A stretch of 37,720 nt of DNA. Source: a virus. The stretch is from IMG/VR virus record IMGVR_UViG_3300027498_000002; one strand, written 5' to 3'. Below, in pieces: positions 6,316 through 37,720 of this stretch. The notes beneath the pieces were generated by a model. That model searched no databases. It saw only the letters and a program-made list of their open reading frames with translations, and was not told the origin of the DNA. The position numbers and the translations under genes were made by a program. Within the stretch, counting starts at the first letter, position 1. Each line of letters starts with the position of its first letter.

Positions 6316-6645
6316 CTATCTTTTCCTGCGTAGGTAGTGCTCAGTCATGCCCTTTATCTCCTTCAGGCGATTAGACACGATGAGCTGGTGTATCTCCTTC
6401 AGCTTCTCCACGTACTGAGGGTAGTCACCATAATCATGGTGATCCTTTCTGCACAGTGCCATCAGATTGCTGATGTGGTCACGCTCTACATTCTTAGTCC
6501 CTCCCATACCCCTATTTATGATGTGGTGGATGTCTACCGCCATCTTGCCGCATATCTCACAGGGCACGAATTCTGTTACACCATGGTTATCATAAGCGTA
6601 GCGCATGAAGTCTAGATATACCCGTGTATGCCTCCTCACCTGCAC
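6316..6645 (-). CDS. HNH endonuclease (free-standing, inside the tail module)
   Basis: Motifs CEICG ... DIHHI ... NLMALCRKDHH, the typical HNH/zinc arrangement. 109 aa. Confidence 0.8.
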   Translation of the reverse strand: MQVRRHTRVYLDFMRYAYDNHGVTEFVPCEICGKMAVDIHHIINRGMGGTKNVERDHISNLMALCRKDHHDYGDYPQYVEKLKEIHQLIVSNRLKEIKGMTEHYLRRKR

Positions 6646-12174: not shown

Positions 12175-12256
12175 ATAAAGAATAAATATATATGTCTTTA
12201 TAGCAGCTCACCTCATGAGCTGTTTACCTACATATTATATGCATGTATGGGGCTAA

Positions 12257-12469
12257 TTATTTATATAGGAGCGTCACTATCCTTTGGTATCTCCATTCAT
12301 CTACTGCGTCCTCAGATACTACAAAGCCAGTTTTTATGGATTCAAAGTGGTAATTAATATCGTTATCCCACTCTAATGTATATCCATAAAGTATTTTAAC
12401 TCCTGTTAGTATGTCTATAGGCTCACCACTTAGAGGCATATCGTCTTCGTGTATTTTTGTCCAGTTCAT
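12257..12469 (-). CDS. Hypothetical protein (late-strand, within the AT-rich island)
   Basis: ATG-initiated 70-aa ORF. Confidence 0.4.
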   Translation of the reverse strand: MNWTKIHEDDMPLSGEPIDILTGVKILYGYTLEWDNDINYHFESIKTGFVVSEDAVDEWRYQRIVTLLYK

Positions 12470-12528
12470 ATTTTTCTTTTTCCGACTTTGGCGTTAGTCA
12501 CTCATGATGCTATTTCGAAAGTTAAAAA

Positions 12529-12542
12529 TTAACAAATGTTAA
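12529..12542. promoter_or_regulatory. Palindromic operator-like site TTAACAAATGTTAA upstream of the plus-strand moron
   Basis: Half sites TTAACA/TGTTAA with a 2-nt spacer. Near-identical sites occur at 27322..27335 and 27367..27380. Confidence 0.4.
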
Positions 12543-12651
12543 TTTATGTAAATAAATTAATATTAATTCCATTTAATGATGTATTATGTCAATATAATTC
12601 TTATATTTACATCATCGAAGCAATTAAGCGGAGAGTAAAAAGTAAATTATA

Positions 12652-12858
12652 ATGAAAGTATCAAAAGCAATTAAAACAGGGAAAATAACATTAGAAGAAA
12701 TTGTTGATTTTATGAATGATGAATTAAGTAATGCGGATCATGTTAAAAAAACTCTATCTGAAATAACTGGTTATGAAGTAGCTAAGATAGATTCTGGTAA
12801 TGAGTGGGATTCTGATTCAATCCTTAATTGTGATATAATTGACGCAACACCTTGTTAG
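12652..12858 (+). CDS. Small acidic protein (candidate anti-defence / moron gene)
   Basis: 68 aa, rich in D/E, on the opposite strand to all flanking late genes. Has its own AT-rich upstream region and terminator. Confidence 0.5.
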   Translation: MKVSKAIKTGKITLEEIVDFMNDELSNADHVKKTLSEITGYEVAKIDSGNEWDSDSILNCDIIDATPC

Positions 12859-12874
12859 TAATTTAAACTAAATA

Positions 12875-13054
12875 ATGAGATTCTACAAACTAAAATCAGA
12901 AAGCCAAGAGCTTTACTATTCAAACCTAATGTTACTTTGTAAAGCTCACAAATTATCATACAGGTCAGCCAACGATAAAATCAAACGCCAAAAGCTACCC
13001 TATAAAAAAAATGGAATGGTAGTTAGAGAGCTGCACATGATTGGACGTGATTAA
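12875..13054 (+). CDS. Small basic putative HTH protein (59 aa, not in the ORF track)
   Basis: ATG at 12875 and TAA at 13052, translated by hand as MRFYKLKSESQELYYSNLMLLCKAHKLSYRSANDKIKRQKLPYKKNGMVVRELHMIGRD. The helix-turn-helix-like core resembles NUMOD1-type DNA-binding modules. Confidence 0.4.
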   Translation: MRFYKLKSESQELYYSNLMLLCKAHKLSYRSANDKIKRQKLPYKKNGMVVRELHMIGRD

Positions 13055-13070
13055 TTCCCATTATCTATTC

Positions 13071-13097
13071 CAGTTGTAACTATATTCTTTACAACTG
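13071..13097 (+). other. Stem-loop (9-bp stem) preceding the terminator
   Basis: CAGTTGTAA (13071..13079) pairs with TTACAACTG (13089..13097). Confidence 0.4.
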
Positions 13098-13132
13098 CCT
13101 ATTGTGTATCTGCTTTAACATTCATTCCACCT

Positions 13133-13185
13133 AATGCAGTATGTGAAATTTTGGCACATACTGCATTTATTTCTCATTTGATTTT
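13133..13185 (+). terminator. Rho-independent terminator of the plus-strand moron
   Basis: Perfect 13-bp stem, AATGCAGTATGTG (13133..13145) with CACATACTGCATT (13155..13167), and a 9-nt loop, followed by a T-rich tract (TATTTCTCATTTGATTTT). Confidence 0.6.
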
Positions 13186-13341
13186 ACGAGACTTCACCGA
13201 TTTGAAAGAATCATAATTTTTATACTTCCGATACCCAAACTCCCTGGCGTGTCTGATCTCCAGCACCTCATAAGCATCACAATGAAAACTAAACTTGTGT
13301 AGTATCCGATAGAATTCATTTATAAATTGTTCAGTCGTCAT
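13174..13341 (-). CDS. Hypothetical small protein (55 aa, not in the ORF track)
   Basis: ATG 3 nt after the terL stop. Hand translation: MTTEQFINEFYRILHKFSFHCDAYEVLEIRHAREFGYRKYKNYDSFKSVKSRKIK. Confidence 0.3.
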   Translation of the reverse strand: MTTEQFINEFYRILHKFSFHCDAYEVLEIRHAREFGYRKYKNYDSFKSVKSRKIK

Positions 13342-13344
13342 CGC

Positions 13345-15506: not shown

Positions 15507-15905
15507 CTAAGAATAGCTAATAGACCCCCTTACCCCCTCGTTAAACTTACGTGCAGAAACCTTCTCGCTGTTTTCATTGTATACATGTGCTTCGTAAAGG
15601 CCCTGGCTCTCTTTCTGTCGCTTAATCTGGTGACACTTGAGCTTATTCATTGACTGCAGGTTTCTCTCGTCAAACTTGGATCCTCCTATCCTGATAGGGA
15701 TGATATGGTCTGTCATAGTCGCATCTAATGGATCGTCTGACACTCTACATGCTGAGCACTCGCACGTAGGGTGGCGCTTCCTTCGAGCGAGAGAATGCTT
15801 GCGCCATTTATGTGAATTATAAAAAGGATAATCACTTGACACAGGCTTGTCTCTCACTGGTGCAGGTTTCTGCCAGGGTGGCTTTTTAAACTTCTTTTCC
15901 AGCAC
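15507..15905 (-). CDS. HNH endonuclease (terminase-associated)
   Basis: CECSAC ... DHIIPIRIGGS ... NLQSMNKLKCHQIK motif. Lies directly upstream of terS, as in HK97-like cos phages. Starts with GTG. Confidence 0.85.
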   Translation of the reverse strand: MLEKKFKKPPWQKPAPVRDKPVSSDYPFYNSHKWRKHSLARRKRHPTCECSACRVSDDPLDATMTDHIIPIRIGGSKFDERNLQSMNKLKCHQIKRQKESQGLYEAHVYNENSEKVSARKFNEGVRGSISYS

Positions 15906-15907
15906 AG

Positions 15908-16675
15908 TTATTGAACTAAGTATGAGCGTTTCTCTACTAATACTGTGGCCATCGTGTCTATCTGTGCGTCAGTGAAGGTTGTCCTGCACTGCAGATAGCT
16001 CATGTTATTATTGTCTACGTCATCACAGTTGTGTAGCTCTCGCTTATAGAATGTATGTCTCAGACCAAAAAAGTGGCCGAGCTCATGACTGATCGTATTA
16101 GTATGTGTAGAGGTCTCCGAAAGAAATATAGAATTCCAGCGATGATCATATTCTCTATCCATCCAGTCAGCTGGGAGGAACGTGAAGCCATTCAGATATC
16201 CCGATGATTCGAGGACATACACATTAATCACCGTATCATCAGCGTGAACTGATAACTCCTTCGTATTGTACGCTGGGTCAGCCATGTAGTGTTCTATTGA
16301 CTTACCTATACTGGACGTGTAATAAAGGCTATCAGGTGGCAGTGTGAAGTCGATCAATCCTCTGAACGAGGAGTTGACATCACCCAGCATCTTGAATACT
16401 GCTGAGTCCCTGGTGATAGGTGACAAGACTGCCTCATCAAAGTGAAACCTGATAGCAACATTGATACCTTCTGTGTACTCTTCCTGGAGCTCTTCAAACT
16501 TGATTAGAGGGATGGTAACAATCGGAGTGATAGTCTCACATCCAAAGCCGCATTGATAAGGGCAGGGGGACGCTGTTGATTGTCCCCCTACCTTATTCTT
16601 AATGAGTGCGCAGCCACCTATCGCATAGAAGAGCAATAAACAGAATACAACAACTAAAGTCTTATGATGGCTCAT
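15908..16675 (-). CDS. Zinc metalloprotease lipoprotein, metzincin M43 (pappalysin/cytophagalysin-like)
   Basis: Lipoprotein-type signal (LLLFYAIGGC), zinc site HELGHFFGLRHTF, and the downstream M43-like NNNMSY ... C ... FTDAQ motif. Confidence 0.8.
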   Translation of the reverse strand: MSHHKTLVVVFCLLLFYAIGGCALIKNKVGGQSTASPCPYQCGFGCETITPIVTIPLIKFEELQEEYTEGINVAIRFHFDEAVLSPITRDSAVFKMLGDVNSSFRGLIDFTLPPDSLYYTSSIGKSIEHYMADPAYNTKELSVHADDTVINVYVLESSGYLNGFTFLPADWMDREYDHRWNSIFLSETSTHTNTISHELGHFFGLRHTFYKRELHNCDDVDNNNMSYLQCRTTFTDAQIDTMATVLVEKRSYLVQ

Positions 16676-17018
16676 TGACGATCTTATTTTTGATCATAAA
16701 AAGGTTAGTGATAGAGGCTGTGAGGCTGAGCACATCAAACATGATCTGCTCATAATGGGGCTCTGCCTCATCGTATAAAATATCAAAGCGATCAGCTATG
16801 AGCACCTTAAGCTCGACACGCTCAGCATCATCCAGGTCCATCAGCTCCTTAATGATGTTCTCAGCCCCATTGATCGCTTGAGGGGCTCCCATTATAAGTT
16901 CTAGTACGGGGGAGAGGTCATCTATCTGAATCTTCTTATCAGAGAAAACCTCCGAGTATAGATCTAAGATATCGAAGCCAAAGCTGAGGGCCTCTTTTGT
17001 TTCCTTAATATTTGCCAT
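16662..17018 (-). CDS. Hypothetical acidic protein
   Basis: Start trimmed to the ATG at 17018 (MANIKETKE...), which removes the overlap with the upstream gene. 118 aa, helical and acidic. Confidence 0.45.
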   Translation of the reverse strand: MANIKETKEALSFGFDILDLYSEVFSDKKIQIDDLSPVLELIMGAPQAINGAENIIKELMDLDDAERVELKVLIADRFDILYDEAEPHYEQIMFDVLSLTASITNLFMIKNKIVNEPS

Positions 17019-17029
17019 AGTAAGTATTT

Positions 17030-17488
17030 TTATGATTTGAATAAATTGAATGTCTTTAGGAATTCTAATGCCTTGTCCTTGTCGTCTGTGTTTACGAAAT
17101 CGACGAATAAAGCACAATCGTTTTTAGAGACGTTTTCTGGCTCGTGGGGCTCCATGGAGTCATATACAAGCTCTTCGCCTTCTCCTGTCTTTATGCCAGT
17201 GAGGGAGTCGTGTAGCTCGCCCCTGATGACCGTACATACCTCTACGTAATCATGAAAGTGAGGAGGTGTAAAGCCTTTGCCTGGGGGTATGATCGTGACA
17301 AACCTCATGTGGTAATCATTACTAACTACCTTGATATTAAGGGTACCATGCAGGTCCATCATCTGCCCTTGCTTCCACTTGTCATCATAGATAGCGTCCC
17401 AGGTAATCAGGTTAGTGAAGTTCTGAATCGAGCCTAATGCAATGACCTTTTTCTCTATGATTCGTAATAATTCTAACTCACTTTTCAT
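17030..17488 (-). CDS. Cupin-fold protein
   Basis: Cupin motifs PPHFHDYVEVCTVIRGEL ... EPHEPEN. Confidence 0.55.
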   Translation of the reverse strand: MKSELELLRIIEKKVIALGSIQNFTNLITWDAIYDDKWKQGQMMDLHGTLNIKVVSNDYHMRFVTIIPPGKGFTPPHFHDYVEVCTVIRGELHDSLTGIKTGEGEELVYDSMEPHEPENVSKNDCALFVDFVNTDDKDKALEFLKTFNLFKS

Positions 17489-17846
17489 TTATATCAACTA
17501 CTTTTTTGTTATCAATGGCATGTAATAGGGAAGTCAAGCAGTCGCTATCACAGTTAGTTTTTATTGACTGTATCAGGGAGTTGAGTCTCACGTTTTCTAT
17601 CCTTGCTGTGTGGTGCTTTTTGGAGGCCTCTAGATGCATATCAAAAACCTTTGATAGCTCTTCGTTCACCTTAAGGAGCTGTATCCTGATCTTGCTTTCG
17701 CTCTCCATCTCAATGGACTCCTTTTCGCTTTTTCTTCGATATTTACCGACGCCAAAATAGCCCACCACAGCTGTAATGATAGATCCTGCAATGATCACCA
17801 CCTGGCCGCTGTGCTCTTTAATTATATCTGTCAAAAGGTTACCCAT
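17478..17846 (-). CDS. N-terminally anchored membrane protein with coiled coil (i-spanin-like topology)
   Basis: TM segment VVIIAGSIITAVVGYFGVG followed by a charged helical region. Confidence 0.5.
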   Translation of the reverse strand: MGNLLTDIIKEHSGQVVIIAGSIITAVVGYFGVGKYRRKSEKESIEMESESKIRIQLLKVNEELSKVFDMHLEASKKHHTARIENVRLNSLIQSIKTNCDSDCLTSLLHAIDNKKVVDINEK

Positions 17847-20800
17847 TAATTTAATTTATATCGGTTTACGGTAAATGTAGAGTCAGCGACTACAGAGACA
17901 TCAGAGCCAGAGTTATCCTTTCTGACTTCTAAGAATAGCTTAGATCCTGCCCTAAGGTACTTGGTCAACGTGCTTGAAAAATGTGACTTATCACTAGCAG
18001 GGCCAGTGGGATTATGAACATAATGGCTCCACTCTTCGACAACTGAATTACCTGCGCTGGAGACGTAGAATAGTCTGATATACACTGTATTTTCATTCGA
18101 TCCGCTCCCAACAAATTCTAAGTCTAAGGTGATCTTATAATAATCATCTTCAGACATGTTTATCTCACTACTATTGGTCTGGCTGAGCGTAGACCCTGTA
18201 GAGGAACCTAAACCACCAAAATTCAAACGGCTATACGAGCCCCCTACTGATGTACTACCGCCACCCTTGGTATATGTGGCGCTATCAAACAATAGACTCG
18301 GTGCGCTACCTCCTGAGGCAAAAAAATCAAGACGGTTGTTTTGATCATTGTAGGTGACATTAATGTTAGATTCAACATTGTTGCTCACCATGCCCCCTAT
18401 TATATCTTGTACGTTTTCGCTGCTTAGGACATCGTCAAGCACCTGACCTCCACCGCTCAGAATGATATTCCTGCCTGATTTTGTCAGCTGCTGTATCTCA
18501 TTAGTGCCACTCACGTCATTGGCGTAAAAGTTCAGCTTTCCGTTGGTGTCGTTATATGATACATTAATACCTGATTCGGTGTTAGACACTACCATGTCGC
18601 CTACCAAATCTTCTATGCTCTCGTCGCTGCGACCTCCTGCTAAGCTAGAAAGATCAACGTCATTTTTACTGGAAATTGATAGTATGTTATTAGATGAGCT
18701 GAATGCTAAATTTTGAAGTTCATTGATGATGCTATTGTCATTATCAGCAACTGAAAATGTCGCATTAGTACCTCCCTTATCGATTGAGATCGTGCGATTA
18801 GTGCCCGACGAACTCGGTGAGAGGTTCTGTATCTCATTAGATGAGCTATTGTCGTTGTTGGCAGGAAAATTCACAACAAAGTCGATCTCATTGTTCAGGT
18901 CATCATATGTGACATTTATCCCCGATTCTGTATTGCCCGACAACATCGGCTCGATGTGATCTTGCACTTGCTCTCGAGTCAGGTTAGTGTTATCTAAGTA
19001 GCCAGCCAGCGATATATTTGTTAAACTATTCGTCAGGGACAAATTATTATTAGAGAAAGTCAAATCTTGAAACTCATTGCCTATCAAATTGTCATTATCA
19101 GCAACTGAAAATGTCGCATTAGTACCTCCCTTATCGATTGAGATCGTGCGATTAGTGCCCGACGAACTCGGTGAGAGGTTCTGTATCTCATTAGATGAGC
19201 TATTGTCGTTGTTGGCAGGAAAATTCACAACAAAGTCGATCTCATTGTTCAGGTCATCATATGTGACATTTATACCTGATTCTGTATTGCCTGAGAGCAT
19301 GGGCTCGATGTGGTCTTGCACTTGCTCGCGAGTCAGATTAGTGTTATCTAAGTAGCCAGCCAGCGATATATTTGTTGAGCTATTCGTCAGGGACAAATTA
19401 TTATTAGAGAAAGTCAAATCTTGAAACTCATTGCCTATCACATTGTCATTATCAGCGATGGAGAAGGTCGCATTAGTACCCCCTTTATCAATTGCGATTG
19501 TGCGATTAGTGCCCGACGCGCTGGGGGAGAGATTCTGTATCTCATTAGATGAGCTATTGTCGTTATCAGCGATGGAGAAGGTCGCATTAGTGCCCCCTTT
19601 ATCAATTGCGATTGTGCGATTAGTGCCCGACGCGCTGGGGGAGAGGTTCTGTATCTCGTTAGATGAGCTATTATCGTTGTTGGCAGGAAAATTCACGATA
19701 AAATCTATCTCATTGTCATCGTCATCGTAGGTGACATTTATCCCAGATTCGGTATTGCCTGAGAGCATGGGCTCGATGTGGTCTTGCACTTGTTCGCGAG
19801 TCAGATTAGTGTTATCTAAGTAGCCGGCCAATGGGACCACTATGCTACTGTTAGTCATAGATAGGTCATTGCCTGTCAGTGACAAATCTTGATACTCATT
19901 ACCTATCACATTATCATTGTCAGCGATGGAGAAGGTCGCATTAGTACCTCCTTTGTCGATTGCGATCGTGCGATTAGTGCCAGACGCGCTGGGTGAGAGA
20001 TTCTGTATCTCATTAGTAGAACTGTTGTCATTGTTAGCTGGTACGGTGGACCAGATAACCCCATCTGCGTCGCGGCTGAGGTACTGGCCTGTGCTGCCTA
20101 TGCTTTGATTACTGTCTTCTATGTGATTGAGGAGGCCGAGTTTGCCATTTACTTTTAGATAATCAGCGAATACGTCACCGTAGATCAAGTTACCATTTCC
20201 AATATAAATCTTTCCATTTTGAGTACCGCTAAAAGCAGGGGGACCAGCGCCCGTGCCAATGCTTATGTTCTCACTTCCATTTTCAAGTTGGGACTCACCT
20301 ATTATGATGTTTAGGTCCCCTGATGAGAAACTAGGCGCAGCAAAATTGCCAAGTATCGTGTTATTGTTTCCTGTATTAAAGGTCGATGCAGCAAATGACC
20401 CAACTATCGTATTACCTATACCCGTATGGCTAAGTCCGTTACCTATTATTACATTCTGATTGTCGTTAAATTCATAAATACTTGCCCTCACGTTTCCTTG
20501 CACGTGTAGTTTCCTGTTAGGGTTACTCGTCCCTATCCCCACAGTCACACCAGTATTATTATATAGCTTATCCCCTGACGCGGTCCAGAAATTATCTTGA
20601 ATAGGTAGAAGGGCACTACCTCCATCCTCTAAGAATAGTTCATTGCCCAATATGGTGAGCTGCTGATTATCGAGGTATGGGTCTAAGCTAACGCCATTGC
20701 CATAGCTGATGAGAATACTATCATTTCTTAGTTCAAGGTTACGCCTTGGTGTCTTGATGCCATTAGTATTAGAGATGTAAATACTGTCACTAGACACTGA

Positions 20801-21325
20801 TAAACTCTGAGCAGCTCCAGCGATGATTGAGCCAAGGTTTACACTGTTGCCATTACTGATATATAATAAGGAATCAATAATTGATAATGTCTGGACATCC
20901 ACTAAGTCAATAGGTACGCCATTGCCTCCAGTGATAAATATTGAATCATTAAGAATCGTGAGCGTTTGGACCAGACTATCAGGAAAAAAGGAATCTATAG
21001 AAACACTGTTTCCTCCTGATATGATAAGTGAGTCCCCCACAATAGACAGTGTCTGCTCATCAGTATCAGTATCAGTATCAATAGAGCTGATATCAATGTT
21101 CCCCCCTCGCTGTAGCGTGATGATACCATCGTTATAAAACAGCTGCTGAGCATCGGTATCGAATACGGCCAGATTGACTGAGTTAGAACCTTTGAGCTTT
21201 AGGAGGTTACCCGATAGAATCAATGAATCTATCTTACATTTGTCATACCTCAACGTGTCTCGTGATACCTGAGCTGATAACCCGTACGCCACCAGCAGCA
21301 TAGCTATGATCTTTAGAATCCTCAT
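17846..21325 (-). CDS. Large exported repeat protein, tail-fibre/adhesin-like
   Basis: Start trimmed to the ATG at 21325, giving signal peptide MRILKIIAMLLVAYGLSA|Q. Roughly 22-aa repeats (QTLSI.GDSL.ISGGNSV.L) come first, then a fibre-like segment (GVTVGIGTSNPNRKLHVQGN, GNTIVGSFAAS ... NTILGNFAA). After that are 118-aa tandem repeats and a beta-sandwich-like C-terminus. Confidence 0.8.
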   Translation of the reverse strand: MRILKIIAMLLVAYGLSAQVSRDTLRYDKCKIDSLILSGNLLKLKGSNSVNLAVFDTDAQQLFYNDGIITLQRGGNIDISSIDTDTDTDEQTLSIVGDSLIISGGNSVSIDSFFPDSLVQTLTILNDSIFITGGNGVPIDLVDVQTLSIIDSLLYISNGNSVNLGSIIAGAAQSLSVSSDSIYISNTNGIKTPRRNLELRNDSILISYGNGVSLDPYLDNQQLTILGNELFLEDGGSALLPIQDNFWTASGDKLYNNTGVTVGIGTSNPNRKLHVQGNVRASIYEFNDNQNVIIGNGLSHTGIGNTIVGSFAASTFNTGNNNTILGNFAAPSFSSGDLNIIIGESQLENGSENISIGTGAGPPAFSGTQNGKIYIGNGNLIYGDVFADYLKVNGKLGLLNHIEDSNQSIGSTGQYLSRDADGVIWSTVPANNDNSSTNEIQNLSPSASGTNRTIAIDKGGTNATFSIADNDNVIGNEYQDLSLTGNDLSMTNSSIVVPLAGYLDNTNLTREQVQDHIEPMLSGNTESGINVTYDDDDNEIDFIVNFPANNDNSSSNEIQNLSPSASGTNRTIAIDKGGTNATFSIADNDNSSSNEIQNLSPSASGTNRTIAIDKGGTNATFSIADNDNVIGNEFQDLTFSNNNLSLTNSSTNISLAGYLDNTNLTREQVQDHIEPMLSGNTESGINVTYDDLNNEIDFVVNFPANNDNSSSNEIQNLSPSSSGTNRTISIDKGGTNATFSVADNDNLIGNEFQDLTFSNNNLSLTNSLTNISLAGYLDNTNLTREQVQDHIEPMLSGNTESGINVTYDDLNNEIDFVVNFPANNDNSSSNEIQNLSPSSSGTNRTISIDKGGTNATFSVADNDNSIINELQNLAFSSSNNILSISSKNDVDLSSLAGGRSDESIEDLVGDMVVSNTESGINVSYNDTNGKLNFYANDVSGTNEIQQLTKSGRNIILSGGGQVLDDVLSSENVQDIIGGMVSNNVESNINVTYNDQNNRLDFFASGGSAPSLLFDSATYTKGGGSTSVGGSYSRLNFGGLGSSTGSTLSQTNSSEINMSEDDYYKITLDLEFVGSGSNENTVYIRLFYVSSAGNSVVEEWSHYVHNPTGPASDKSHFSSTLTKYLRAGSKLFLEVRKDNSGSDVSVVADSTFTVNRYKLN
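18720..20040. repeat. In-frame tandem repeat, 354-bp unit x about 3.4, plus an extra 114-bp sub-unit duplication
   Basis: Units at 18723, 19077 and 19431 sit at exactly 354-nt offsets. The two lowest copies share a perfectly identical run of about 185 nt. The protein repeat is NDNSSSNEIQNLSPS.SGTNRTI.IDKGGTNATFS.ADNDN + ...GYLDNTNLTREQVQDHIEPMLSGNTESGINVTYDD. Confidence 0.9.
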
Positions 21326-21326
21326 A

Positions 21327-22304
21327 TTAGTAAATATCAAATGTGTAATTAGTTAATGACTTACTGGGCTTTATTCTGATGTCCTGTCCACCGATGATTA
21401 TGGTGTACTTAGAGTCGTGCACGGTATATGCTTTACCTGTCTTTATGAGACCAGAATAGTAGAGTACATTACCATTCTTTACTTTGATAGACTGTACCTT
21501 CTTTTTCTTGTCTCTGGTACCAGTCATGACAGCAGTCATCAGCTCTGTCTCATTCATGTAGTGTATGTCAGATGAGGTATTCATCTTGACCTTCTTTTGC
21601 TTTGCTGTGCGCTTGACACGCTCCAAGGGGTGCCACATCATCGCAAAAGGGGCAGGGGGAGGTATATCACAGATTATGTCAGCTGAGATGTCCCTGATCT
21701 GCTGAGTCAGCACCTTGTTTCTTTCCTTCTTATCAGGGATGAGCTCAAGGGGGTAGGACCAGCGTATATCTCCTGCTCCATCCGTAGAGTCTTGGAGCAC
21801 AGCTATATTCATAATCTGATGTAAGGTATCATTGTGCTCCTGTATTGTCTCAAAGTATACGATAGTCGCGCACTGCACTGTATTGACGATTCTATAGTTA
21901 GATAGCTCGATGTCGTCGATGTATTCAAATTCCATTTGGCTACCAGAAGGCCGGAGGGGGTCCATGAAGTAATCAGCTATATCGATGGTATCACACGCCT
22001 TGGCTGACTCAATAGCCTGGGTCTCTAAAGCATACCAGACACTGTCTGAATGAGCTTGGCTCCTGATAAGGTCGTAGGCGTACTCATGCATTGACTTGAT
22101 GTAAGGGTCTGTCTGCTGGTAGCCTCCTGCAGCCTGTACTTGATAGCCGAACACCCTGACTGAAGTGTCTCTTATCTCTCTATCTCGATCTATGGTGATG
22201 ACCTCATAGCAGTCATAAGTGTGCACAGGGGTGATATTAACCTGGCCCCACATCGTGAGTGGAGCCAGTAACATGAAACACAGCACGGATCTATACCTTC
22301 TCAT
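21327..22304 (-). CDS. Exported hypothetical protein
   Basis: Signal peptide MRRYRSVLCFMLLAPLTMWG|Q. 325 aa. Confidence 0.6.
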   Translation of the reverse strand: MRRYRSVLCFMLLAPLTMWGQVNITPVHTYDCYEVITIDRDREIRDTSVRVFGYQVQAAGGYQQTDPYIKSMHEYAYDLIRSQAHSDSVWYALETQAIESAKACDTIDIADYFMDPLRPSGSQMEFEYIDDIELSNYRIVNTVQCATIVYFETIQEHNDTLHQIMNIAVLQDSTDGAGDIRWSYPLELIPDKKERNKVLTQQIRDISADIICDIPPPAPFAMMWHPLERVKRTAKQKKVKMNTSSDIHYMNETELMTAVMTGTRDKKKKVQSIKVKNGNVLYYSGLIKTGKAYTVHDSKYTIIIGGQDIRIKPSKSLTNYTFDIY

Positions 22305-22626
22305 TGGTTATCTCTTTAATGGCCTTACGTATGACAGCCTTTAGTTTTTTTAATCTCTTTCTCCTGATGCCTGTATTCTGCTGTAGCATCTTCTCATAGT
22401 GATCCCATAAGACCTGTATGCGCTCGCTCTGCTCTTTAGATACTTCTACAGCCCCCCTCTTCATCCTGCGCTTGCCTCGCTCAAAGGAGGCGACTGAGCT
22501 GTAAGATGTCGTATCAATCAAGTCGTACTCCGACGCGACGACTGGCTTACCGGATGGCAGCACCGCGTACGTCTGTCCAGAGAGCGTGACGGATATAAAT
22601 AGTAGTATGGTGGTGATGGTCTTCAT
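22291..22626 (-). CDS. Exported small basic helical protein
   Basis: Signal peptide MKTITTILLFISVTLSG|Q. 111 aa. Confidence 0.55.
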   Translation of the reverse strand: MKTITTILLFISVTLSGQTYAVLPSGKPVVASEYDLIDTTSYSSVASFERGKRRMKRGAVEVSKEQSERIQVLWDHYEKMLQQNTGIRRKRLKKLKAVIRKAIKEITNEKV

Positions 22627-22635
22627 CTATCTGAA

Positions 22636-23403
22636 TTATTGAAAGTTTGAGCTTGCGTATATAGATAGGTCCATGTCTATGCTGATCCATTCTGCCTGAT
22701 CGGCTGTGACTCCCAAATCTACTATCTCCAGCTCAGCCAATATGCTGACTGACTTACTGCCTATGGGTCCTATATTAACTGGTATGCGCTTAGACAACTC
22801 AAAGTCTCCCTCATAGTCTCCCACATTATAGTATATGCGTTTCTCTGAGATGACAGTAGAGGGGCCTGAGTCTACGCTGGCCTTGAGTCTGAGTATATAT
22901 GATGCTACCTGTGCGCCTGCTAAATGAAACTTAGCATCTACCGCATAGAAGCCTTTCATAGGCAGGCACTCTGATGGGTTGTTGACAGACAGCGTATTGA
23001 CTATAGAGCTTGTTTTTATGGTGCCAGAATTGAGCTGCTTGCTCTCTATGTTAGATGTGCTATTATACTCATTGAGCGTATAGGGATCGCAGCCGCTGCC
23101 TCCTGTCTCAGCAGCATTAGAGCCTGGCTCTCCTCCATCTCCGCATATGTCTAAGAGCACAGCTGAGGTGTCTTTATTGAAAACATAGTACAATGACTGA
23201 TCTTCTGCGTACAGCTTAGAGGTGATGCCTATGTCTATCCCTAATGAGTCAGCATCGTAATAGTACTGTCTGCCATCTGTGTCAGTTAGGATCATCTGAT
23301 TGATCGTATCTGAGTGTTCTATCTGCTTTAACCTGACTTGGCCCTGCAGTGATTGCAGGACCAATGTCAGGAATGCGCCCAGTAAGGTATATTTTAATGT
23401 CAT
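22636..23403 (-). CDS. Exported hypothetical protein
   Basis: Signal peptide MTLKYTLLGAFLTLVLQSLQG|Q. 255 aa with a beta-rich C-terminal half. Confidence 0.6.
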   Translation of the reverse strand: MTLKYTLLGAFLTLVLQSLQGQVRLKQIEHSDTINQMILTDTDGRQYYYDADSLGIDIGITSKLYAEDQSLYYVFNKDTSAVLLDICGDGGEPGSNAAETGGSGCDPYTLNEYNSTSNIESKQLNSGTIKTSSIVNTLSVNNPSECLPMKGFYAVDAKFHLAGAQVASYILRLKASVDSGPSTVISEKRIYYNVGDYEGDFELSKRIPVNIGPIGSKSVSILAELEIVDLGVTADQAEWISIDMDLSIYASSNFQ

Positions 23404-23485
23404 TGGGATTAATTAATCTAAAAAAGCAGCCCTGTAGACGGGCGTCAGGTAGGGCCGCTTAAAAGACGAAATCAAAATTTGTATC

Positions 23486-23896
23486 TTAATTACATTGATA
23501 ATTGAAAACACCAGATATAATGCCAGTGTGGTCTGATAGCTCAAAAGTCACGCTCGTGTTACTCATATTAGTGATGCGTGTAATAGAGTGTGTCATAGGG
23601 GTCACTGTGCAGGTAGGCAGGTAATCCCTGTAGATGTCTTTGAAATAGATCTTATATCGTTTGTTATGCAGGATTAGGACTTTATCGATGTTGTTGTGAT
23701 TACTAAAAGTACCGTCCGCGTGTATGGTGCCGTGGCTCTGGATGACCTTTCTTAGGGTCAGATCAGTCATACTATTCGAAGTAGTATCATTATGTAGCGA
23801 TAGTCTGTCAGTGACTATACGGCCTTCAAACTCAGCAGTCTGAGCATGGGTGACGGTGCTAAGGACCATCAAGAGGGTAAATATTATAAATCTCAT
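23486..23896 (-). CDS. Exported hypothetical protein
   Basis: Signal peptide MRFIIFTLLMVLSTVTHA|Q. 136 aa. Confidence 0.6.
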   Translation of the reverse strand: MRFIIFTLLMVLSTVTHAQTAEFEGRIVTDRLSLHNDTTSNSMTDLTLRKVIQSHGTIHADGTFSNHNNIDKVLILHNKRYKIYFKDIYRDYLPTCTVTPMTHSITRITNMSNTSVTFELSDHTGIISGVFNYQCN

Positions 23897-24114
23897 AAAT
23901 TATGTTGTTTACGGAATTTAGCTAATGCGGCCTGGTCGACTCTGTGCTTGATGCCATCTGTGGTTAGCAGCTCCTTCTCTTTCATCCATTCAAATACTTC
24001 GTTAGATCTCTTCAAGCTGAACTTGAGTAGGCGCTGTAGCTTGTTAGGGCTGATCACATCTAGGCTGGAGGATAGCTGTATGGCCCACTTCTGATATTTG
24101 TCGAATTCACTCAA
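23893..24114 (-). CDS. Small winged-helix protein (FtsK-gamma-like)
   Basis: ISPNKLQRLLKFSLKRSNEVFEWMKEKELL resembles the FtsK gamma domain pattern (S.S.LQR.L.IGYNRAAR..E.ME..G). TTG start. Confidence 0.35.
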   Translation of the reverse strand: MSEFDKYQKWAIQLSSSLDVISPNKLQRLLKFSLKRSNEVFEWMKEKELLTTDGIKHRVDQAALAKFRKQHNL

Positions 24115-24385
24115 AACAGTCTAATAATTTTTTAGTAACGACAACTAAGAAGAAGGCGCAGCTCACGACTCGCTTAACCTGCCACATCCTCAAAGGCTTG
24201 TATTTTTTATCTTCAAAAAAATTATCTTTCGCAAAGGATGCGATATCTAACAGCACACCGGAGATATTGCATTGTCGCTGAAGCACTCGTTTCACTTCAG
24301 GGCGAATAGCCCCAGGGATACTCCTATCGTCTTCAGCTGCTATTTGGAATGCGCTGGTAGCTTTATTAAGACTTTGTAGTTTCAT
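24107..24385 (-). CDS. Hypothetical protein with C-terminal hydrophobic segment
   Basis: Start trimmed to the ATG at 24385. C-terminal VVSCAFFLVVVT. Confidence 0.4.
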   Translation of the reverse strand: MKLQSLNKATSAFQIAAEDDRSIPGAIRPEVKRVLQRQCNISGVLLDIASFAKDNFFEDKKYKPLRMWQVKRVVSCAFFLVVVTKKLLDCFE

Positions 24386-24581
24386 CACTTTTTTTATTCC
24401 TATTTCTGAATAATATTCTGAAGACGACAAATATGCTTAGCCAGCTAATTAGGGCCGTGGTAAAATGGTGCTCCGCAATTTTTCGATCATTGTAAGAATA
24501 GAACACACCCATGTTGAGCATATACCCTAATAGGTAGATGATGACTATGTCTGACAGGCCGAATCTGATAAACTCTATCAT
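24366..24581 (-). CDS. Holin-like two-TM protein
   Basis: Start trimmed to the ATG at 24581, forming an ATGA overlap with the amidase stop. 71 aa, two hydrophobic helices and a charged C-terminus (RNRNKKSDETTKS). Confidence 0.55.
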   Translation of the reverse strand: MIEFIRFGLSDIVIIYLLGYMLNMGVFYSYNDRKIAEHHFTTALISWLSIFVVFRILFRNRNKKSDETTKS

Positions 24582-25198
24582 AGTTTGCGCTTGTTGATTT
24601 GGTTTTGAATATCGATACACATGCAGGTTAGAAAACCCGACTGGTCGGATATGCCTTTATCTGACAATAGATACTTACGCCCTGCTGGATTCGTCATAAA
24701 CTCCCACTCTGTCAGTACTGCTGGGCAAGATGTCTTTGTCAATACTGCGAAGTTTGCCTCCTTTGAGCGTTTCCCTGGAATGACTTGATACCAGCGCTTT
24801 TTACGATTCGGGAATCTACGCTCAAAGTGAGATGCGATATGCTCTGCGTAATCGTCTGACCTGGTCTGACCGATCGAAGTAAACAGCTCAAAGCCCGATA
24901 CACTTTTTTTCTTATATCCGTTTTGATGCACCGATAGTAAAAAACAATTGTGTGGCCTGTACTTGCCGGCTATCGCGTTCACTCTCATGACACGAAGACC
25001 AAGCGGTATGTCTTCATTCTCTGGGGTCACTACATGAAAGGGTACATTTTTACTGGATAGGTTGAAGGCGATCATACTCACTATCATACGATTATATGCT
25101 CCCTCTGAGAATGAGCTGAGCCCATTGTACAGCCCTCTATCAGGTGTCTGGGTGACTCCCTCTACGTATCCTCCATGTCCAGCATCTAATAATATCAT
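24578..25198 (-). CDS. N-acetylmuramoyl-L-alanine amidase (endolysin, Amidase_3-like)
   Basis: MILLDAGHGG ... SVHQN ... FAVL ... VLTEWEFMTNP, a typical zinc amidase pattern. Confidence 0.9.
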   Translation of the reverse strand: MILLDAGHGGYVEGVTQTPDRGLYNGLSSFSEGAYNRMIVSMIAFNLSSKNVPFHVVTPENEDIPLGLRVMRVNAIAGKYRPHNCFLLSVHQNGYKKKSVSGFELFTSIGQTRSDDYAEHIASHFERRFPNRKKRWYQVIPGKRSKEANFAVLTKTSCPAVLTEWEFMTNPAGRKYLLSDKGISDQSGFLTCMCIDIQNQINKRKL

Positions 25199-25405: not shown

Positions 25406-25438
25406 GCCGACAATTTAACACATTGTCGGCCTTTTTCT
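25406..25438 (+). terminator. Orphan hairpin plus T-tract (terminator-like) in the int-upstream intergenic region
   Basis: GCCGACAAT (25406..25414) pairs with ATTGTCGGC (25422..25430), followed by CTTTTTCTCT. No plus-strand gene lies upstream in the circular form. Confidence 0.4.
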
Positions 25439-25546: not shown

Positions 25547-26737
25547 ATGAATAAACTAAATCTCCCCCAAATGAAAGTAAGGTACTTACTGCGTAATAAG
25601 GCTCGCTATCATGATTATATCCCACTGATCTGTCGCATCAGTCATCGTGGAGTCTCTGAATTCAACACAGGGCTATTGATAAGAGAGCAGCACTGGGACC
25701 ATGACAAGCAGCGAGATAAACGCGACAAGATAAACGTTAAAATAAAGCTGATCACGCAGAAAATCATGGATGTGTATAACGAACATGCTGACAGCAGCTG
25801 GACCAGCACCGATATTTTAAATCAAATGGAGGCAGACCATTCGCCAAAATTCAATTGGCCCGATCTATTCAGCGCACATGATCAACACCAAGCAGTCGTG
25901 AAAAGCTCAGCTAAGTACACCAGGGATAGATACATGAGGTGCATGAGGTATCTGATAGAAGACATTCCTAATATCAGCATCAACTATCTTAAGCGATCAC
26001 ACATCAGTTTATTCTACCAGGCACTGAGGTCACGAGGCATATCTAATAATATGGCCGTGAAGTATATCAGCCTGCTATCATCTGTCATTGAGTATGGTAA
26101 CTATATGGATCTCATAGACATTAAGAATCCTTGCAAGGGGCATCAATTTAAGCTGGAGGAGGTAGAAACTGTCTACCTGGATCATGCAGAGCTGGGCAGG
26201 CTGGAGCACAAAGACTTGTCTATGCTCCCTAGGCTGGAGCAGGTCAGAGATGTCTTCGTCTTTCAGTGCTATACAGGCATGGAGTACAGCAGAGTAGTGA
26301 CACTCCATATGCAGCAGATCAAAAAAGATGCGCAAGGGGATCTTTGGATAGAGTCTACCAGACAAAAGACAGGCGTGAAGATACATATATACCTCTACCC
26401 TGAGGCGAAAGCTATATTAAATCGTTATAGCTGTTACCAGGACGAGCACGGAGGCAAGGCACTACCTGTCAGCAGTAATCAGCATATGAATGCGTATCTA
26501 CAAGAGCTATGCACTATATGTCAGATTGACAAGAAGCTGACGACACATAAGGCCAGACACACTTTTGCGACTACAGTGCTACTAGATAGGGGTGTCTCCA
26601 TGGAAAGCGTAAAGAATCAGTTAGGCCATAGATCCATTAAAACGACTGAGTCAGTGTATGGCAAGATCACGAGAAAGCGCATCAAGGATGAATCATTGAA
26701 GGTATTAAAGGACCACTATTCTACTGAAGAAGGTTAA
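25547..26737 (+). CDS. int: Tyrosine recombinase / phage integrase
   Basis: 396 aa. The C-terminal catalytic region HKARHTFATTVLL ... LGHRSIKTTESVYGKI supplies the R, H-x-x-R and Y residues. The N-terminal arm-binding and SAM-like regions are typical of Bacteroidota integrases. Confidence 0.95.
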   Translation: MNKLNLPQMKVRYLLRNKARYHDYIPLICRISHRGVSEFNTGLLIREQHWDHDKQRDKRDKINVKIKLITQKIMDVYNEHADSSWTSTDILNQMEADHSPKFNWPDLFSAHDQHQAVVKSSAKYTRDRYMRCMRYLIEDIPNISINYLKRSHISLFYQALRSRGISNNMAVKYISLLSSVIEYGNYMDLIDIKNPCKGHQFKLEEVETVYLDHAELGRLEHKDLSMLPRLEQVRDVFVFQCYTGMEYSRVVTLHMQQIKKDAQGDLWIESTRQKTGVKIHIYLYPEAKAILNRYSCYQDEHGGKALPVSSNQHMNAYLQELCTICQIDKKLTTHKARHTFATTVLLDRGVSMESVKNQLGHRSIKTTESVYGKITRKRIKDESLKVLKDHYSTEEG

Positions 26738-26774: not shown

Positions 26775-26917
26775 ATTAAAATACCTCATTTAAACACTTA
26801 CCCCCACTTAACAGTTATATATACACTAATCGAAATCTTTATCATCTGAATCTAGTGGACATAAAGGCATCTTTTAACTGATTTTGCTTTTTATCCATTT
26901 AACTACTATTGACTCAG

Positions 26918-27316
26918 ATGAATTACGTAAAGACTCAAACGTATAGCCATGAGGCTATATCCTCACCAGTACAGGGGACAATCAAAATTAAATTATACAC
27001 CATCAGTGGACGGCTCACGGAGACCATTAAGGGCATCTTTGCCCAGCTCATCCATAGGGACCATGAGCTGCTAAAAGGCCATCAAATAGCTGCGCATACA
27101 TGCAGAACGTTTTGGCTGATTCGGGCCGAAAAAGGGGCTGTTATACCACCTCATTATCACACATATAGTCAGAGAATCATCATGCTGAGCGGCCTTACAT
27201 GGGAGACAGAAAGGGGTATATCTTACACTCCAGGCATGATATATGACATCCCAGCTCACCAAAATCACGGCTTTTTAATGCGCGAAAAGAGCGCGTATCT
27301 AGTCTTAATCAAATAA
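26918..27316 (+). CDS. Cupin-fold protein
   Basis: Start trimmed to the ATG at 26918. Motifs IPPHYHTYSQRIIMLSG ... IPAHQNHGF. Confidence 0.55.
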   Translation: MNYVKTQTYSHEAISSPVQGTIKIKLYTISGRLTETIKGIFAQLIHRDHELLKGHQIAAHTCRTFWLIRAEKGAVIPPHYHTYSQRIIMLSGLTWETERGISYTPGMIYDIPAHQNHGFLMREKSAYLVLIK

Positions 27317-27642: not shown

Positions 27643-27775
27643 CTAGTACCAAGAATTCTAGAATTTATCTAGAAAAAGAATTTTCAAAAAAAATGAAAAA
27701 TCGAAAATCAAAATTTGGAAAATCAGAAAATTCGAATTAGGTTTGCATCGTCGAATTTATCGAAATCGAAATCTC
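27643..27775. repeat. A-tract / short tandem repeat block (GAAAATC- and ATCGAAA-type units)
   Basis: Runs of A4-A8 every 7-13 nt, then ...TGAAAAATCGAAAATCAAAATTTGGAAAATCAGAAAATTCG... and ATCGAAATCGAAATC. Confidence 0.7.
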
Positions 27776-27881: not shown

Positions 27882-28319
27882 CTAATCGTTTTTCTTAAAT
27901 ATGTGGTGGTACACACTTTTATCACCTACCCTCAGCACGTAGCTATCCTCTAAGGTCCAGCCCTGCGCATGTAGTGCATTCATCACATCTACCATGCTAT
28001 TAAATAGCAGAGGGAAGCCTCGCTCATCCTGCACCTCTGACTTCATCCATGTGGCAGAGGTCTGACCTATGTCTATATTGATCTTCACACGCTCACCCAG
28101 CCCCAGGAATCCTGCACGCTCACCCACCACTTGTAGGTACCTCAGGTGCGGTATCTCATTCAGGTCAGTACCATCGATGTACAGTAGAGGGTAGGCCTCT
28201 CCGGAGCGCTCGAAGTAGCTCTTAGTACTGTCTGAGCCTGGCGCAGGCCTGCGCACGACGCATGAGCTCAGCGTGAGGGATAGGAGGCTACAGAGTGTGA
28301 TTAGCTTTAGTATGTTCAT
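27882..28319 (-). CDS. Lipoprotein co-transcribed with the repressor (candidate superinfection-exclusion factor)
   Basis: Lipobox MNILKLITLCSLLSLTLSSC. 4-nt ATGA overlap with the CI-like gene. Confidence 0.7.
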   Translation of the reverse strand: MNILKLITLCSLLSLTLSSCVVRRPAPGSDSTKSYFERSGEAYPLLYIDGTDLNEIPHLRYLQVVGERAGFLGLGERVKINIDIGQTSATWMKSEVQDERGFPLLFNSMVDVMNALHAQGWTLEDSYVLRVGDKSVYHHIFKKND

Positions 28320-28699
28320 GTGAGTTTTTCTTGTATTAATAATTTGATTGCGCGTTGATTGTCTAAGATAGCACTTAATACAGGATCCGCTGGAGGTATA
28401 GCTGGTGACTTAGCCAGCTGAGTCAATACGTCAGTTACGCCCGTGGAGTATGTTTGTTCTTGATCGCTGATGAGTGCATCCCCCTCACCAGTGAATAGCC
28501 AGTTGAGATTGACCTGCTTGACATTAGATTTTAGGTGATAGAGTACCTTATAGTCGATATCTGTAGTCCCTTTTCTGAGGCGTGACATCTTACCTGTATT
28601 GATGTCCAATGCTGCATAAAGAGCAGCTTTAGAGTGATATATCCGCTCTTCAATAATTTTTTCTACTAAATTATCAAAGCGTGTAATCACCTGATTCAT
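28316..28699 (-). CDS. CI-type phage repressor (Phage_CI_repr-like HTH)
   Basis: Start trimmed to the ATG at 28699. HTH region followed by the signature NLNWLFTGEGD. Divergent from a Cro-like gene. Confidence 0.75.
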   Translation of the reverse strand: MNQVITRFDNLVEKIIEERIYHSKAALYAALDINTGKMSRLRKGTTDIDYKVLYHLKSNVKQVNLNWLFTGEGDALISDQEQTYSTGVTDVLTQLAKSPAIPPADPVLSAILDNQRAIKLLIQEKLT

Positions 28700-28739
28700 A
28701 GCACCGTATGTAGCCTCATCCTCCAAAATATCTAATTTA

Positions 28740-28795
28740 TTAGCATGTTTATGTGCTAATTATTTGCACACATCAAAAATAATTACATAAATTTG
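28740..28795. promoter_or_regulatory. Divergent promoter/operator region of the immunity switch
   Basis: Overlapping inverted repeats: TTAGCA (28740) with TGCTAA (28754), and TGTGC (28752) with GCACA (28766). TAAATTTG (28788..28795, plus strand) and TATTTTTG (minus strand, 28781..28774) both match the Bacteroidota -7 consensus TAnnTTTG. Confidence 0.35.
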
Positions 28796-35559: not shown

Positions 35560-35564
35560 AAGAT

Positions 35565-37683: not shown

Positions 37684-37720
37684 CGGACTTGATCTTTCAT
37701 CTACCCTCCCCCTTAAACTA
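37594..37720. repeat. Terminal overlap copy 2 (identical to 1..127)
   Basis: Same as above. Confidence 0.95.

Follow-up and report, generated by a model that had tools for sequence, protein, structure and literature searches.

The virus sequence IMGVR_UViG_3300027498_000002 of IMG/VR (37,720 nt, the whole of which is called here the window) carries on its minus strand, between positions 15908 and 23896, a cassette of nine open reading frames (ORFs), all of them present in that orientation at the coordinates given below. Its central element is a four-gene core coding for proteins of 255, 111, 325 and 1159 amino acids (aa), the last one a fibre, which is preceded by a gene for a 136-aa protein. 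It is strongly supported by their N-termini that all members of this core and the 136-aa protein would be made as Sec pre-proteins. The export of the module is well supported at the sequence level, and its destination and role are less so; in the favoured interpretation, to which a probability of roughly 45% is given, the module would be exported late, remain outside the virion and act on the host envelope, for example by masking the receptor.

Signal peptides were identified with a strict home-made rule, and not with a trained predictor such as SignalP. This rule (SP+Q, signal peptide plus glutamine) demanded an uncharged stretch of at least 11 residues up to the cut, a best 8-residue Kyte-Doolittle mean of at least 2.0, and a cut site after residue 14-32 with Ala, Gly or Ser at –1 and Gln (Q) at +1. 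Exactly five of the 54 genes fitted it (23486-23896, 22636-23403, 22291-22626, 21327-22304 and 17846-21325), all consecutive and precisely the five to which the first-pass annotation of this DNA had attributed Sec-type signal peptides ending in A↓Q or G↓Q, and no further match was found among 268 six-frame Met-started peptides of at least 60 aa. The chance of five matches being adjacent among 54 genes is about 50/C(54,5), i.e., approximately 2e-5. Among the homologues, 13 of 16 N-termini fitted the rule strictly and three nearly (T↓Q, or an Arg in the c-region), and the n-h-c layout followed by a small residue and Q was kept in all 21 N-termini, drawn from five families and five lineages. Moreover, between the window and the metagenomic contig L010 the signal regions were 42% identical and the mature parts 73% (Fisher p = 8e-9); the signal regions drift faster in sequence and keep their hydrophobicity, which is the pattern expected of cleaved targeting peptides.

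The mature proteins also retain their cysteines. In the 255-aa protein C87, C105 and C146 were all invariant at 48-50% identity, in the 325-aa protein C32, C104, C145 and C212 were all invariant at approximately 25% identity, and the single Cys of the fibre N-terminus was invariant in four aligned lineages and was also found in L010, the alignments behind these observations being shallow (3-5 sequences). From this conservation we infer that the invariant cysteines form extracytoplasmic disulfides. Glutamine at +1 after cleavage by signal peptidase I (SPI), known as the Q-rule, is specific to Bacteroidetes (PMC5837995). That the five N-termini behave as real Sec/SPI signal peptides, with a predicted cut before glutamine, is well supported by these comparisons, and export itself is well supported because the Q-rule signal peptide and the conserved cysteines are kept in every copy.

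When homologues of the 255-aa and 325-aa proteins were looked up, they lay on short metagenomic contigs belonging to at least four other lineages, and the four-gene core was kept in all five lineages seen. With products designated by their length in residues, the gene order was 136, 255, 112, 327 and fibre in L010; amidase, holin, 102, 327 (the 255-aa homologue), 109, 317 and fibre in L011; tail-tip end, 68, 252, 125, 325 and fibre in L012, L016 and L017; and a 610-aa ORF, an 867-aa tail tip, 67, 251, 126, 327 and fibre in L013, L014 and L015. The 610-aa ORF is in the tape-measure position and has no detectable similarity to the tape measure of the window. In the window and L011 the block comes after the lysis genes (amidase and holin), and in two lineages (L013/L014 and L012/L016/L017) it comes directly after the tail-tip gene, with overlapping stop and start codons. 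The slot after the tape measure and tail tip is the normal place of baseplate and fibre genes. Across lineages the identity was 48-50% for the 255-aa protein, the best-conserved member, 37-47% for the fibre N-terminus and 26-33% for the tail tip, and no BLAST similarity was found among the tape measures. Judged from its gene order and conservation, the four-gene core is an ancestral module of a phage family and not a sporadic acquisition. The first-pass proposal of a bor-type moron, lodged between the lysis genes and cos, is therefore not supported, since the core is conserved across lineages with such divergent tail tips and follows the tail tip in two of them.

The contigs of the deeper lineages end inside the fibre, and the order of the distal cassette genes (membrane protein, cupin, acidic protein and M43 protease) was compared with that of L007, a marine-metagenome relative with an 88% identical TerL, in which it was conserved at 49-89% identity. 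The window sequence was also present in two ENA metagenome assemblies. No close cultured or GenBank phage was found, TerL identity being at most 38%, and tblastn against GenBank phages gave one weak match for the fibre and none for the tail tip, the M43 protein or the cupin (E up to 0.01 for the last two). Scans of IMG/VR with the 325-aa protein, with the 255-aa family alignment and with the fibre N-terminus alignment found nothing, and for TerL a 4-kb fragment was the sole match. In the 185,579 species genomes of GTDB neither the 325-aa protein nor TerL led to a prophage, in a scan that reaches close relatives only.

Among the core proteins, the 255-aa product (22636-23403, minus strand; ...LQG↓Q, three invariant Cys) begins with a conserved N-terminal domain, which a G/S-rich linker joins to a predicted all-beta jelly-roll head at the C-terminus. 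It is a near-orphan, with one homologue in a word search of 5.8 billion proteins. Its AlphaFold2 (AF2) model had a mean predicted local distance difference test (pLDDT) score of 58, with values of ~54-86 over residues 115-250, the all-beta C-terminal domain. Foldseek matched this head with the lambda gpJ C-terminus, the TNF-like Chlamydia Pgp3, a cyanophage short-tail-fibre domain and CD40L, in matches of a generic kind (E 5e-5 to 2e-3, TM-score 0.2-0.4), and with many tail-fibre tips in BFVD. These models are suggestive only of a generic jelly-roll head similar to a tail-fibre tip. A paralogy between the C-termini of the 255-aa protein and of the fibre was considered and dropped (E 0.16 or worse). 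The 325-aa protein (21327-22304, minus strand; ...MWG↓Q, four invariant Cys) also belongs to a near-orphan family, with only 2 remote homologues among 1.84 billion representatives; its AF2 model (pLDDT 59.5) presented two beta4-alpha repeats, each with a cysteine pair, and a C-terminal beta domain, and had no significant fold match in the PDB. The 111-aa protein (22291-22626, minus strand; ...LSG↓Q) has a mature pI of 10.1 and a lysine/arginine-rich C-terminus.

The 1159-aa fibre (17846-21325, minus strand; ...LSA↓Q) is composed of a conserved N-terminal domain, short beta-repeats of the type QxLSLxGxxLxISGGNSVxL, a collar motif (VGIGTSNPNRKLHVQGN), repeats of the NEIQ type and a C-terminal domain that, as read from the sequence, is probably beta-rich. 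Its repeats include recent 354-bp tandem duplications with 94% identity: at 18734-20032 there are 2.3 copies of the 354-bp unit, together with 114-bp repeats. Two ENA contigs of the same phage end inside this repeat region, and L007 has fewer repeats. The 136-aa protein (23486-23896, minus strand; ...THA↓Q, 2 Cys) occurred in the window and its closest relative, L010, only, being absent from L011, L013, L014 and L016. Its gene is followed by a hairpin with a U6 run (23404-23485, minus strand; dG –25.2, z –5.15), which may be terminator-like or an RNA-stability element; in L010 (410-490) a hairpin of different sequence is in the same position after the 136-aa gene (dG –29.6, z –6.8), and the U-run belongs to the window copy only. 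Lineage-specific and followed by a strong hairpin, this gene is on present comparisons the one moron-like member of the cassette. For the four small exported proteins no meaningful match came from Pfam, PHROGs or NCBIfam, the PDB sequence search gave no match for the fibre, the PADLOC defence models gave none at E up to 0.01, and no RNA family was found with Rfam. The idea that the proteins are type IX secretion system (T9SS) cargo was rejected, as no C-terminal sorting domain (CTD) was found in any cassette protein with Pfam or NCBIfam at E up to 0.1.

The fibre has approximately 120 homologues, mostly in Bacteroidota, and nearly all of them have signal peptides ending in AQ or GQ; the closest are 31-43% identical over 18-40% of the fibre length. 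The three closest Bacteroidota-type homologues with contexts examined were chromosomal, among housekeeping genes and with no phage genes, and a fourth contig likewise had no phage genes. A small T9SS-CTD gene (155-162 aa; 9525-9992 in L005 and 6127-6615 in L006) was placed immediately before the chromosomal fibre homologue in both contigs, a pairing that hints at a two-gene surface-fibre unit in Bacteroidota. In addition, a distant homologue without signal peptide was found as an ordinary tail fibre in a 64-kb phage, where it precedes holin and lysin; to judge from the lysis genes of that phage (Dp1-type holin, CHAP + GH25 endolysin), its host may be Gram-positive. As a control, the same scan was applied to the cultured Bacteroidota phages 11b, B40-8, P2559S, P12024S and FCL-2 (209 kb in total), in which no genome had more than one SP+Q gene or more than one lipoprotein gene at an annotated start, with none in the tail modules; it is therefore no general habit of Bacteroidota phages to put signal peptides on the proteins of the tail region. 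One candidate from the control, gp71 of the Flavobacterium phage FCL-2 (L023, 45363-45806; 147 aa), has a Q-rule signal peptide followed directly by a VGIxTxxPxxxLxVxG collar motif; it has this short motif in common with the window fibre, the similarity is not significant, and gp71 is outside the tail module.

The four distal genes of the cassette differ in their predicted location. The first-pass annotation had described the cassette as one of exported proteins, which was retained for the five Q-rule proteins and not for the cupin, the acidic protein and the coiled coil, all probably cytoplasmic; its descriptions of these products stood. The 122-aa membrane protein (17478-17846, minus strand) has a single N-terminal transmembrane segment (TM) followed by KYRRK and a coiled coil, a 49% identical homologue in L007 and an Rz-like match in PHROG at E 0.006 only, and the basic residues after the TM indicate that its coiled coil is probably cytoplasmic and not Rz-like. 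The cupin (17030-17488, minus strand; Pfam Cupin_2, 28.1 bits against a cut-off of 27.2; 77% identical in L007) and the acidic protein (16662-17018, minus strand; 118 aa, pI 4.2; 89% identical in L007) have no hydrophobic N-terminus and are not exported; the start of the acidic ORF is most likely the ATG at 17018 and not the TTG at 17117. The last gene (15908-16675, minus strand) encodes a 255-aa M43 metzincin lipoprotein with the lipobox AIGG↓C, the zinc site HELGHFFGLRH of the HExxHxxGxxH type and a Met-turn (NNMSY...FTDAQIDTM). It scored 36.8 bits on Peptidase_M43 (Pfam PF05572; cut-off 23), covering positions 17-89 of the 152 in the profile, and weakly matched an NCBIfam metzincin-lipoprotein model, and a pappalysin chain aligned across the zinc site with a non-significant E-value of 0.45. 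Its homologue in L007 is 70% identical, with the lipobox LMYAVGG↓C in place of the LFYAIGG↓C of the window. The Bacteroidota signal for surface export of lipoproteins consists of acidic residues after the Cys, and the residues found there (ALIKNK) are basic; the M43 lipoprotein probably faces the periplasm.

The genome carrying this cassette is complete. An exact terminal overlap of 127 bp (positions 1-127 = 37594-37720) indicates a circular assembly of ~37.6 kb. The phage is temperate, as judged from an integrase gene at 25547-26737 on the plus strand, where the early genes also lie, and the minus strand is a single long co-oriented array from the amidase through the tail tip. This array begins with an Amidase_3 endolysin, a two-TM holin-like ORF, two small ORFs and the nine cassette ORFs, continues with HNH, TerS, TerL, portal, protease, HK97-type capsid, connectors and major tail protein, and ends with two ORFs of chaperone size, the tape measure of 688 aa and, as a single last gene, that of an 877-aa protein; the flanks agree with the early description of the cassette as lying between the lysis genes and HNH/terminase. 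Intergenic spacing in the array is –65 to +11 nt, with the exceptions of 82 nt after the 136-aa gene and 63 nt before TerS. No Shine-Dalgarno sequences were found in the late-array genes, which fits a Bacteroidota host, and there are further observations compatible with this host, namely the fibre homologues in Cyclobacteriaceae, Flavobacteriaceae and Saprospira and the matches to the TTTG...TAnnTTTG promoter in the window, outside the cassette. This evidence is indirect; the phage is taken here as one of a family of marine Bacteroidota siphophages.

The endolysin (24578-25198, minus strand; Pfam PF01520, E 2e-19; PHROG endolysin) is the first gene of the late array; it has neither a signal peptide nor a signal-arrest-release (SAR) segment and no hydrophobic N-terminus, and a 56% identical homologue heads the L011 array. 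The holin-like ORF (24366-24620, minus strand) has TM-like segments at residues 13 and 52, an uncertain start codon and a weak homologue in L011. Adjoining it there is a 107-aa protein with a C-terminal hydrophobic segment (24107-24430, minus strand; 39% identical homologue in L011), and directly upstream of the exported genes lies a 73-aa basic, non-exported ORF with a TTG start (23893-24114, minus strand). Small ORFs of 67-68 aa hold the slot of this last ORF in other lineages; no similarity was detectable between it and the 67-68-aa ORFs or the L011 extension described below, so that the equivalence is by position only. The downstream boundary of the cassette is the HNH endonuclease (15507-15905, minus strand), preceding TerS and TerL. 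After the tape measure comes only the gene of the 877-aa tail-tip protein (331-2964, minus strand), so that distal-tail and tail-tip genes are not recognisable as separate units; homologues of this protein lie directly upstream of the exported block in other lineages. It had no match in PHROG, Pfam, NCBIfam, PDB sequences or the GenBank-phage tblastn, and it is collinear with the 867-aa protein of L013, at the identity given above, over three segments. Co-transfer of the tail-tip C-terminal domain with the module was considered and dropped; whole tail tips are collinear distant homologues.

Other features of the genome lie outside the module. Between TerL and portal there is a 1.1-kb low-GC (0.34) gap (12175-13344) with a 70-aa ORF (12257-12469), a Bacteroidota-type promoter match on the minus strand (12921-12952) and no Rfam match. 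Two more HNH endonuclease genes were present (6316-6645 and 35532-36023), one of which interrupts the tail module, separating the connector genes from the major tail protein. On the minus strand, a 145-aa lipoprotein (27882-28319, lipobox LSS↓C) forms a pair with a 136-aa ORF (28316-28726) in the region that separates the integrase from the early genes, with promoter-pattern matches on the plus strand (27714-27745 and 28763-28795); this lipoprotein is a better candidate for expression in the lysogen than the cassette. A second, ChrR-like cupin is encoded just past the integrase (26909-27316, plus strand) and is weakly similar to the cassette cupin around PPH(F/Y)H. The integrase-amidase intergenic region carries a GC-rich hairpin of 9 bp, flanked on either side by T/A runs (25406-25430), which could be a bidirectional terminator or part of attP, and a –7-like TATGTTTG is located 39 nt upstream of the amidase start.

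In the favoured reading, the mature proteins of the module would fold in the periplasm, where the invariant cysteines would form disulfides and the N-terminus would become pyroglutamate, and would form an envelope-located fibre or ligand-binding complex outside the virion. Such a complex would resemble the chromosomal signal-peptide-bearing fibre proteins of Bacteroidota, the closest relatives of the fibre, and would act on the envelope of the very cell that is infected: fibre and jelly-roll head protein would bind the receptor of the phage or some surface structure, or intercept it, limiting superinfection and keeping progeny off debris by the logic of the proteins Cor and Llp considered below. 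The periplasm-facing M43 protease may trim envelope proteins, and the cupin, the acidic protein and the membrane protein would be cytoplasmic or inner-membrane companions. A non-virion role is favoured because the nearest relatives of the fibre are cellular exported proteins and because the tail proteins of the five cultured Bacteroidota phages have no signal peptides; the M43 lipoprotein, a second kind of exported product in the same array and an enzyme conserved in L007, was also counted in its favour, as were the Q-rule proteins noted in Porphyromonas gingivalis phages and the distant fibre homologue that has no signal peptide in its own phage. Moreover, we know of no tailed-phage virion protein with a Sec signal, and the 877-aa tip may carry the receptor-binding domain itself, by analogy with lambda gpJ.

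Several points weigh against this reading. In two lineages the block occupies the canonical tail-fibre slot, right after the tape measure and tail tip; in conservation the module equals or exceeds the tail-tip protein, which typical cargo does not; the complete genome, with its single gene after the tape measure, contains no fibre or receptor-binding candidate without a signal peptide; and the 255-aa protein resembles a receptor-binding protein in its succession of N-terminal domain, linker and jelly-roll head. Furthermore, since no T9SS CTD was found, surface display is left unexplained, the absence of an internal promoter makes expression in the lysogen doubtful, the stalk of 1141 residues exceeds the needs of receptor masking, and the signal-peptide rule is not that of a trained predictor.

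The first four of these points would be accounted for if the module were instead the host-recognition apparatus of the virion, consisting of a long fibre together with a short receptor-binding protein and two assembly factors, all folded in the periplasm; this is the main rival explanation, less probable than the favoured one. Its steps would be export, cutting before Q, cyclisation, disulfide formation and docking on the tail-tip protein, and the proteins would meet finished tails after the holin opens the inner membrane, with the outer membrane still intact, or just after lysis. To the block's position, with its overlapping stop and start codons, to its family-wide conservation together with the tail tip and to the lack of another fibre candidate can be added the composition of a fibre module (stalk, jelly-roll head protein and small accessory proteins), the fibre N-terminal domain past the cut site, which is the best-conserved part of the fibre, as for a docking domain, and the distant fibre homologues that are ordinary tail fibres in other phages. 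The lysis genes also bear on this explanation: an endolysin with neither signal nor SAR segment needs a large-hole holin, and such a holin with no recognisable spanin implies that periplasm and cytoplasm would mix within an intact outer membrane before release. The virion reading is physically conceivable, and the suggestion in the first-pass annotation of an extracytoplasmic path for fibre proteins gains weight, as a hypothesis, from the tail-slot synteny. It is opposed by the absence, to our knowledge, of any tailed phage that sends virion proteins through Sec, and a full-text literature search retrieved no paper describing such proteins. The signal-free tail proteins of the control phages, the cellular exported relatives of the fibre and a tip that may itself hold the receptor-binding domain, as in gpJ, speak against it as they speak for a non-virion role, and the uptake of periplasmic fibres by cytoplasmic tails is hypothetical.

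An improbable explanation is that of a moron of the bor/lom type, expressed from the prophage and converting the surface of the lysogen with an adhesin and a protease. The phage is temperate (integrase 25547-26737) and the proteins are exported, as this explanation would have it; the 136-aa gene is lineage-specific and followed by the terminator-like hairpin, and the M43 protein and the cupin look like cargo because they have no match among GenBank phages. The Q-rule proteins of P. gingivalis prophages are likewise interpreted as outer-membrane modifiers (PMC10367356). It conflicts with the conservation of the four core genes across deep lineages, with a position not tied to lysis genes or cos in the relatives and with the lack of a related prophage in the species genomes scanned. 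Gene spacing and promoter motifs argue in the same direction. The spacing of the cassette genes is –14 to +9 nt, except for the one hairpin-filled 82-nt gap, and it is strongly supported by this arrangement that they would have no room for a promoter of their own. In a crude scan the pattern TTTG-N17-23-TAnnTTTG had three matches in the window and none within the cassette, and the only –7-like motifs near or in the cassette were the one upstream of the amidase and one inside a coding region; a sigma-70 promoter scan was uninformative for Bacteroidota. With neither a promoter-sized gap nor a Bacteroidota promoter motif in the cassette, the role in lysogenic conversion put forward in the first-pass annotation is not sustained.

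It is still less probable that the exported proteins are lysis accessories that, in a host whose phages lack recognisable spanins, breach the outer membrane; candidates for this would be the 111-aa protein, cationic and periplasmic, the lipoprotein protease M43 and the coiled-coil membrane protein. Both in the window and in L011 the module comes directly after amidase and holin, a search for a spanin pair gave none, the mature 111-aa protein is strongly basic (pI 10.1, with a basic C-terminus) and the coiled-coil protein has its weak Rz-like PHROG match; but a 1159-aa repeat fibre and a jelly-roll head protein are foreign to known lysis systems, the coiled coil is probably cytoplasmic, given the basic residues after the TM, unlike that of Rz, the M43 protein is a 255-aa enzyme and not a short proline-rich o-spanin, and the block follows tail genes in two lineages. 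A spanin made of the coiled-coil protein and the M43 protein was rejected on topology and size, and no embedded small lipoprotein ORF was found.

That there is no real export, the N-termini being uncleaved anchors or chance features of ordinary cytoplasmic structural proteins, is highly improbable: the prediction comes from a home-made rule and not from a trained predictor or an experiment, and the hydrophobic segment of the L011 255-aa homologue lies ~95 residues into a longer ORF, but the layout with a small residue and Q recurs in all 21 N-termini, no such match exists elsewhere in the window, the signal regions drift faster yet keep their hydrophobicity and the cysteines are invariant. The L011 homologue (1275-2258) is one continuous ORF whose extension before the hydrophobic segment occupies the slot of the small upstream ORF, being either a natural fusion, with an internal signal or anchor, or an assembly error.

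Phage-encoded exported proteins are an already known kind, described mainly as single morons, exclusion proteins and spanins; here a fibre-type module is exported as a whole, with stalk, head protein and accessory proteins. No conserved multi-gene fibre-type module with all components exported and placed in the tail-fibre slot was found in the searchable literature. The relatives behind this comparison are short metagenomic contigs, and the structure models are of low confidence. If the favoured reading is true and the module acts outside the virion, it would give phages a new means, built from several proteins, of remodelling or masking the host envelope, and it would give a handle on a large class of uncharacterised signal-peptide-bearing "tail fiber domain" proteins of Bacteroidota. 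It is possible, if unlikely, that a tailed-phage family matures its fibres and receptor-binding protein outside the cytoplasm and joins them to tails after holin action; this would be the first extracytoplasmic assembly step for a virion of Caudoviricetes and would overturn the rule that tailed-phage virions assemble entirely in the cytoplasm.

Among known systems, Bor and Lom of lambda are exported envelope proteins of a temperate siphophage, the former encoded after the lysis genes and the latter after gene J of the tail tip. As in the window, they are encoded in the late region; they are single genes with their own promoters, expressed in the lysogen and sporadic among relatives, in contrast to the four-gene family-wide block described here, which is tightly coupled to the late genes and has a fibre and head-domain architecture. 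Tail-fibre-like proteins that reach the bacterial surface are exemplified by PblA and PblB of the Streptococcus mitis phage SM1, which act as adhesins; they differ in having no signal peptides, in reaching the surface via holin/lysin release and in their Gram-positive host. The lambda gpJ C-terminus and the short tail fibre of cyanophage A-1(L) have a jelly-roll TNF-like head, as does the model of the 255-aa protein, and siphophage receptor-binding proteins have the same layout of N-terminal domain, linker and head and the same position after the tail-tip gene as the block in the relatives; in contrast to the module, gpJ and the A-1(L) fibre are cytoplasmic and free of signal peptides, and the likeness in fold is of a generic kind (TM-score 0.2-0.4, mean pLDDT 58). 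Virion proteins with Sec signal peptides are known in filamentous phages, namely pIII and pVIII, a set that includes the adsorption protein, but these belong to an unrelated virus type extruded through the membrane and have no homology to the module.

Closer to the presumed host, P. gingivalis phages encode five Q-rule proteins of unknown function, read as outer-membrane modifiers (PMC10367356). They are similarly encoded by Bacteroidota phages and have an exposed N-terminal glutamine, a likeness by description (PMC10367356); they come from a different phage family, and the passages on them describe no conserved fibre-type operon in the tail-fibre slot (PMC10367356). The chromosomal "tail fiber domain" proteins of Bacteroidota (for example P0004, P0020 and P0034) have repeat types and a signal peptide in common with the fibre, but lack the 255-aa, 111-aa and 325-aa partner genes; two of the chromosomal fibre proteins are preceded by a small T9SS-CTD gene that the phage does not have, and many of them end in a Peptidase_S74 chaperone domain that is absent from the phage fibre. 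Finally, Cor of phi80, N15 and T1 and Llp of T5 are Sec-exported single small proteins, encoded beside receptor-binding genes, which block the phage's own receptor against superinfection and against loss of progeny to debris. Their likeness to the module is one of role and gene position and not of compared sequence or fold, and in these respects Cor and Llp serve as the working analogy for the favoured reading.

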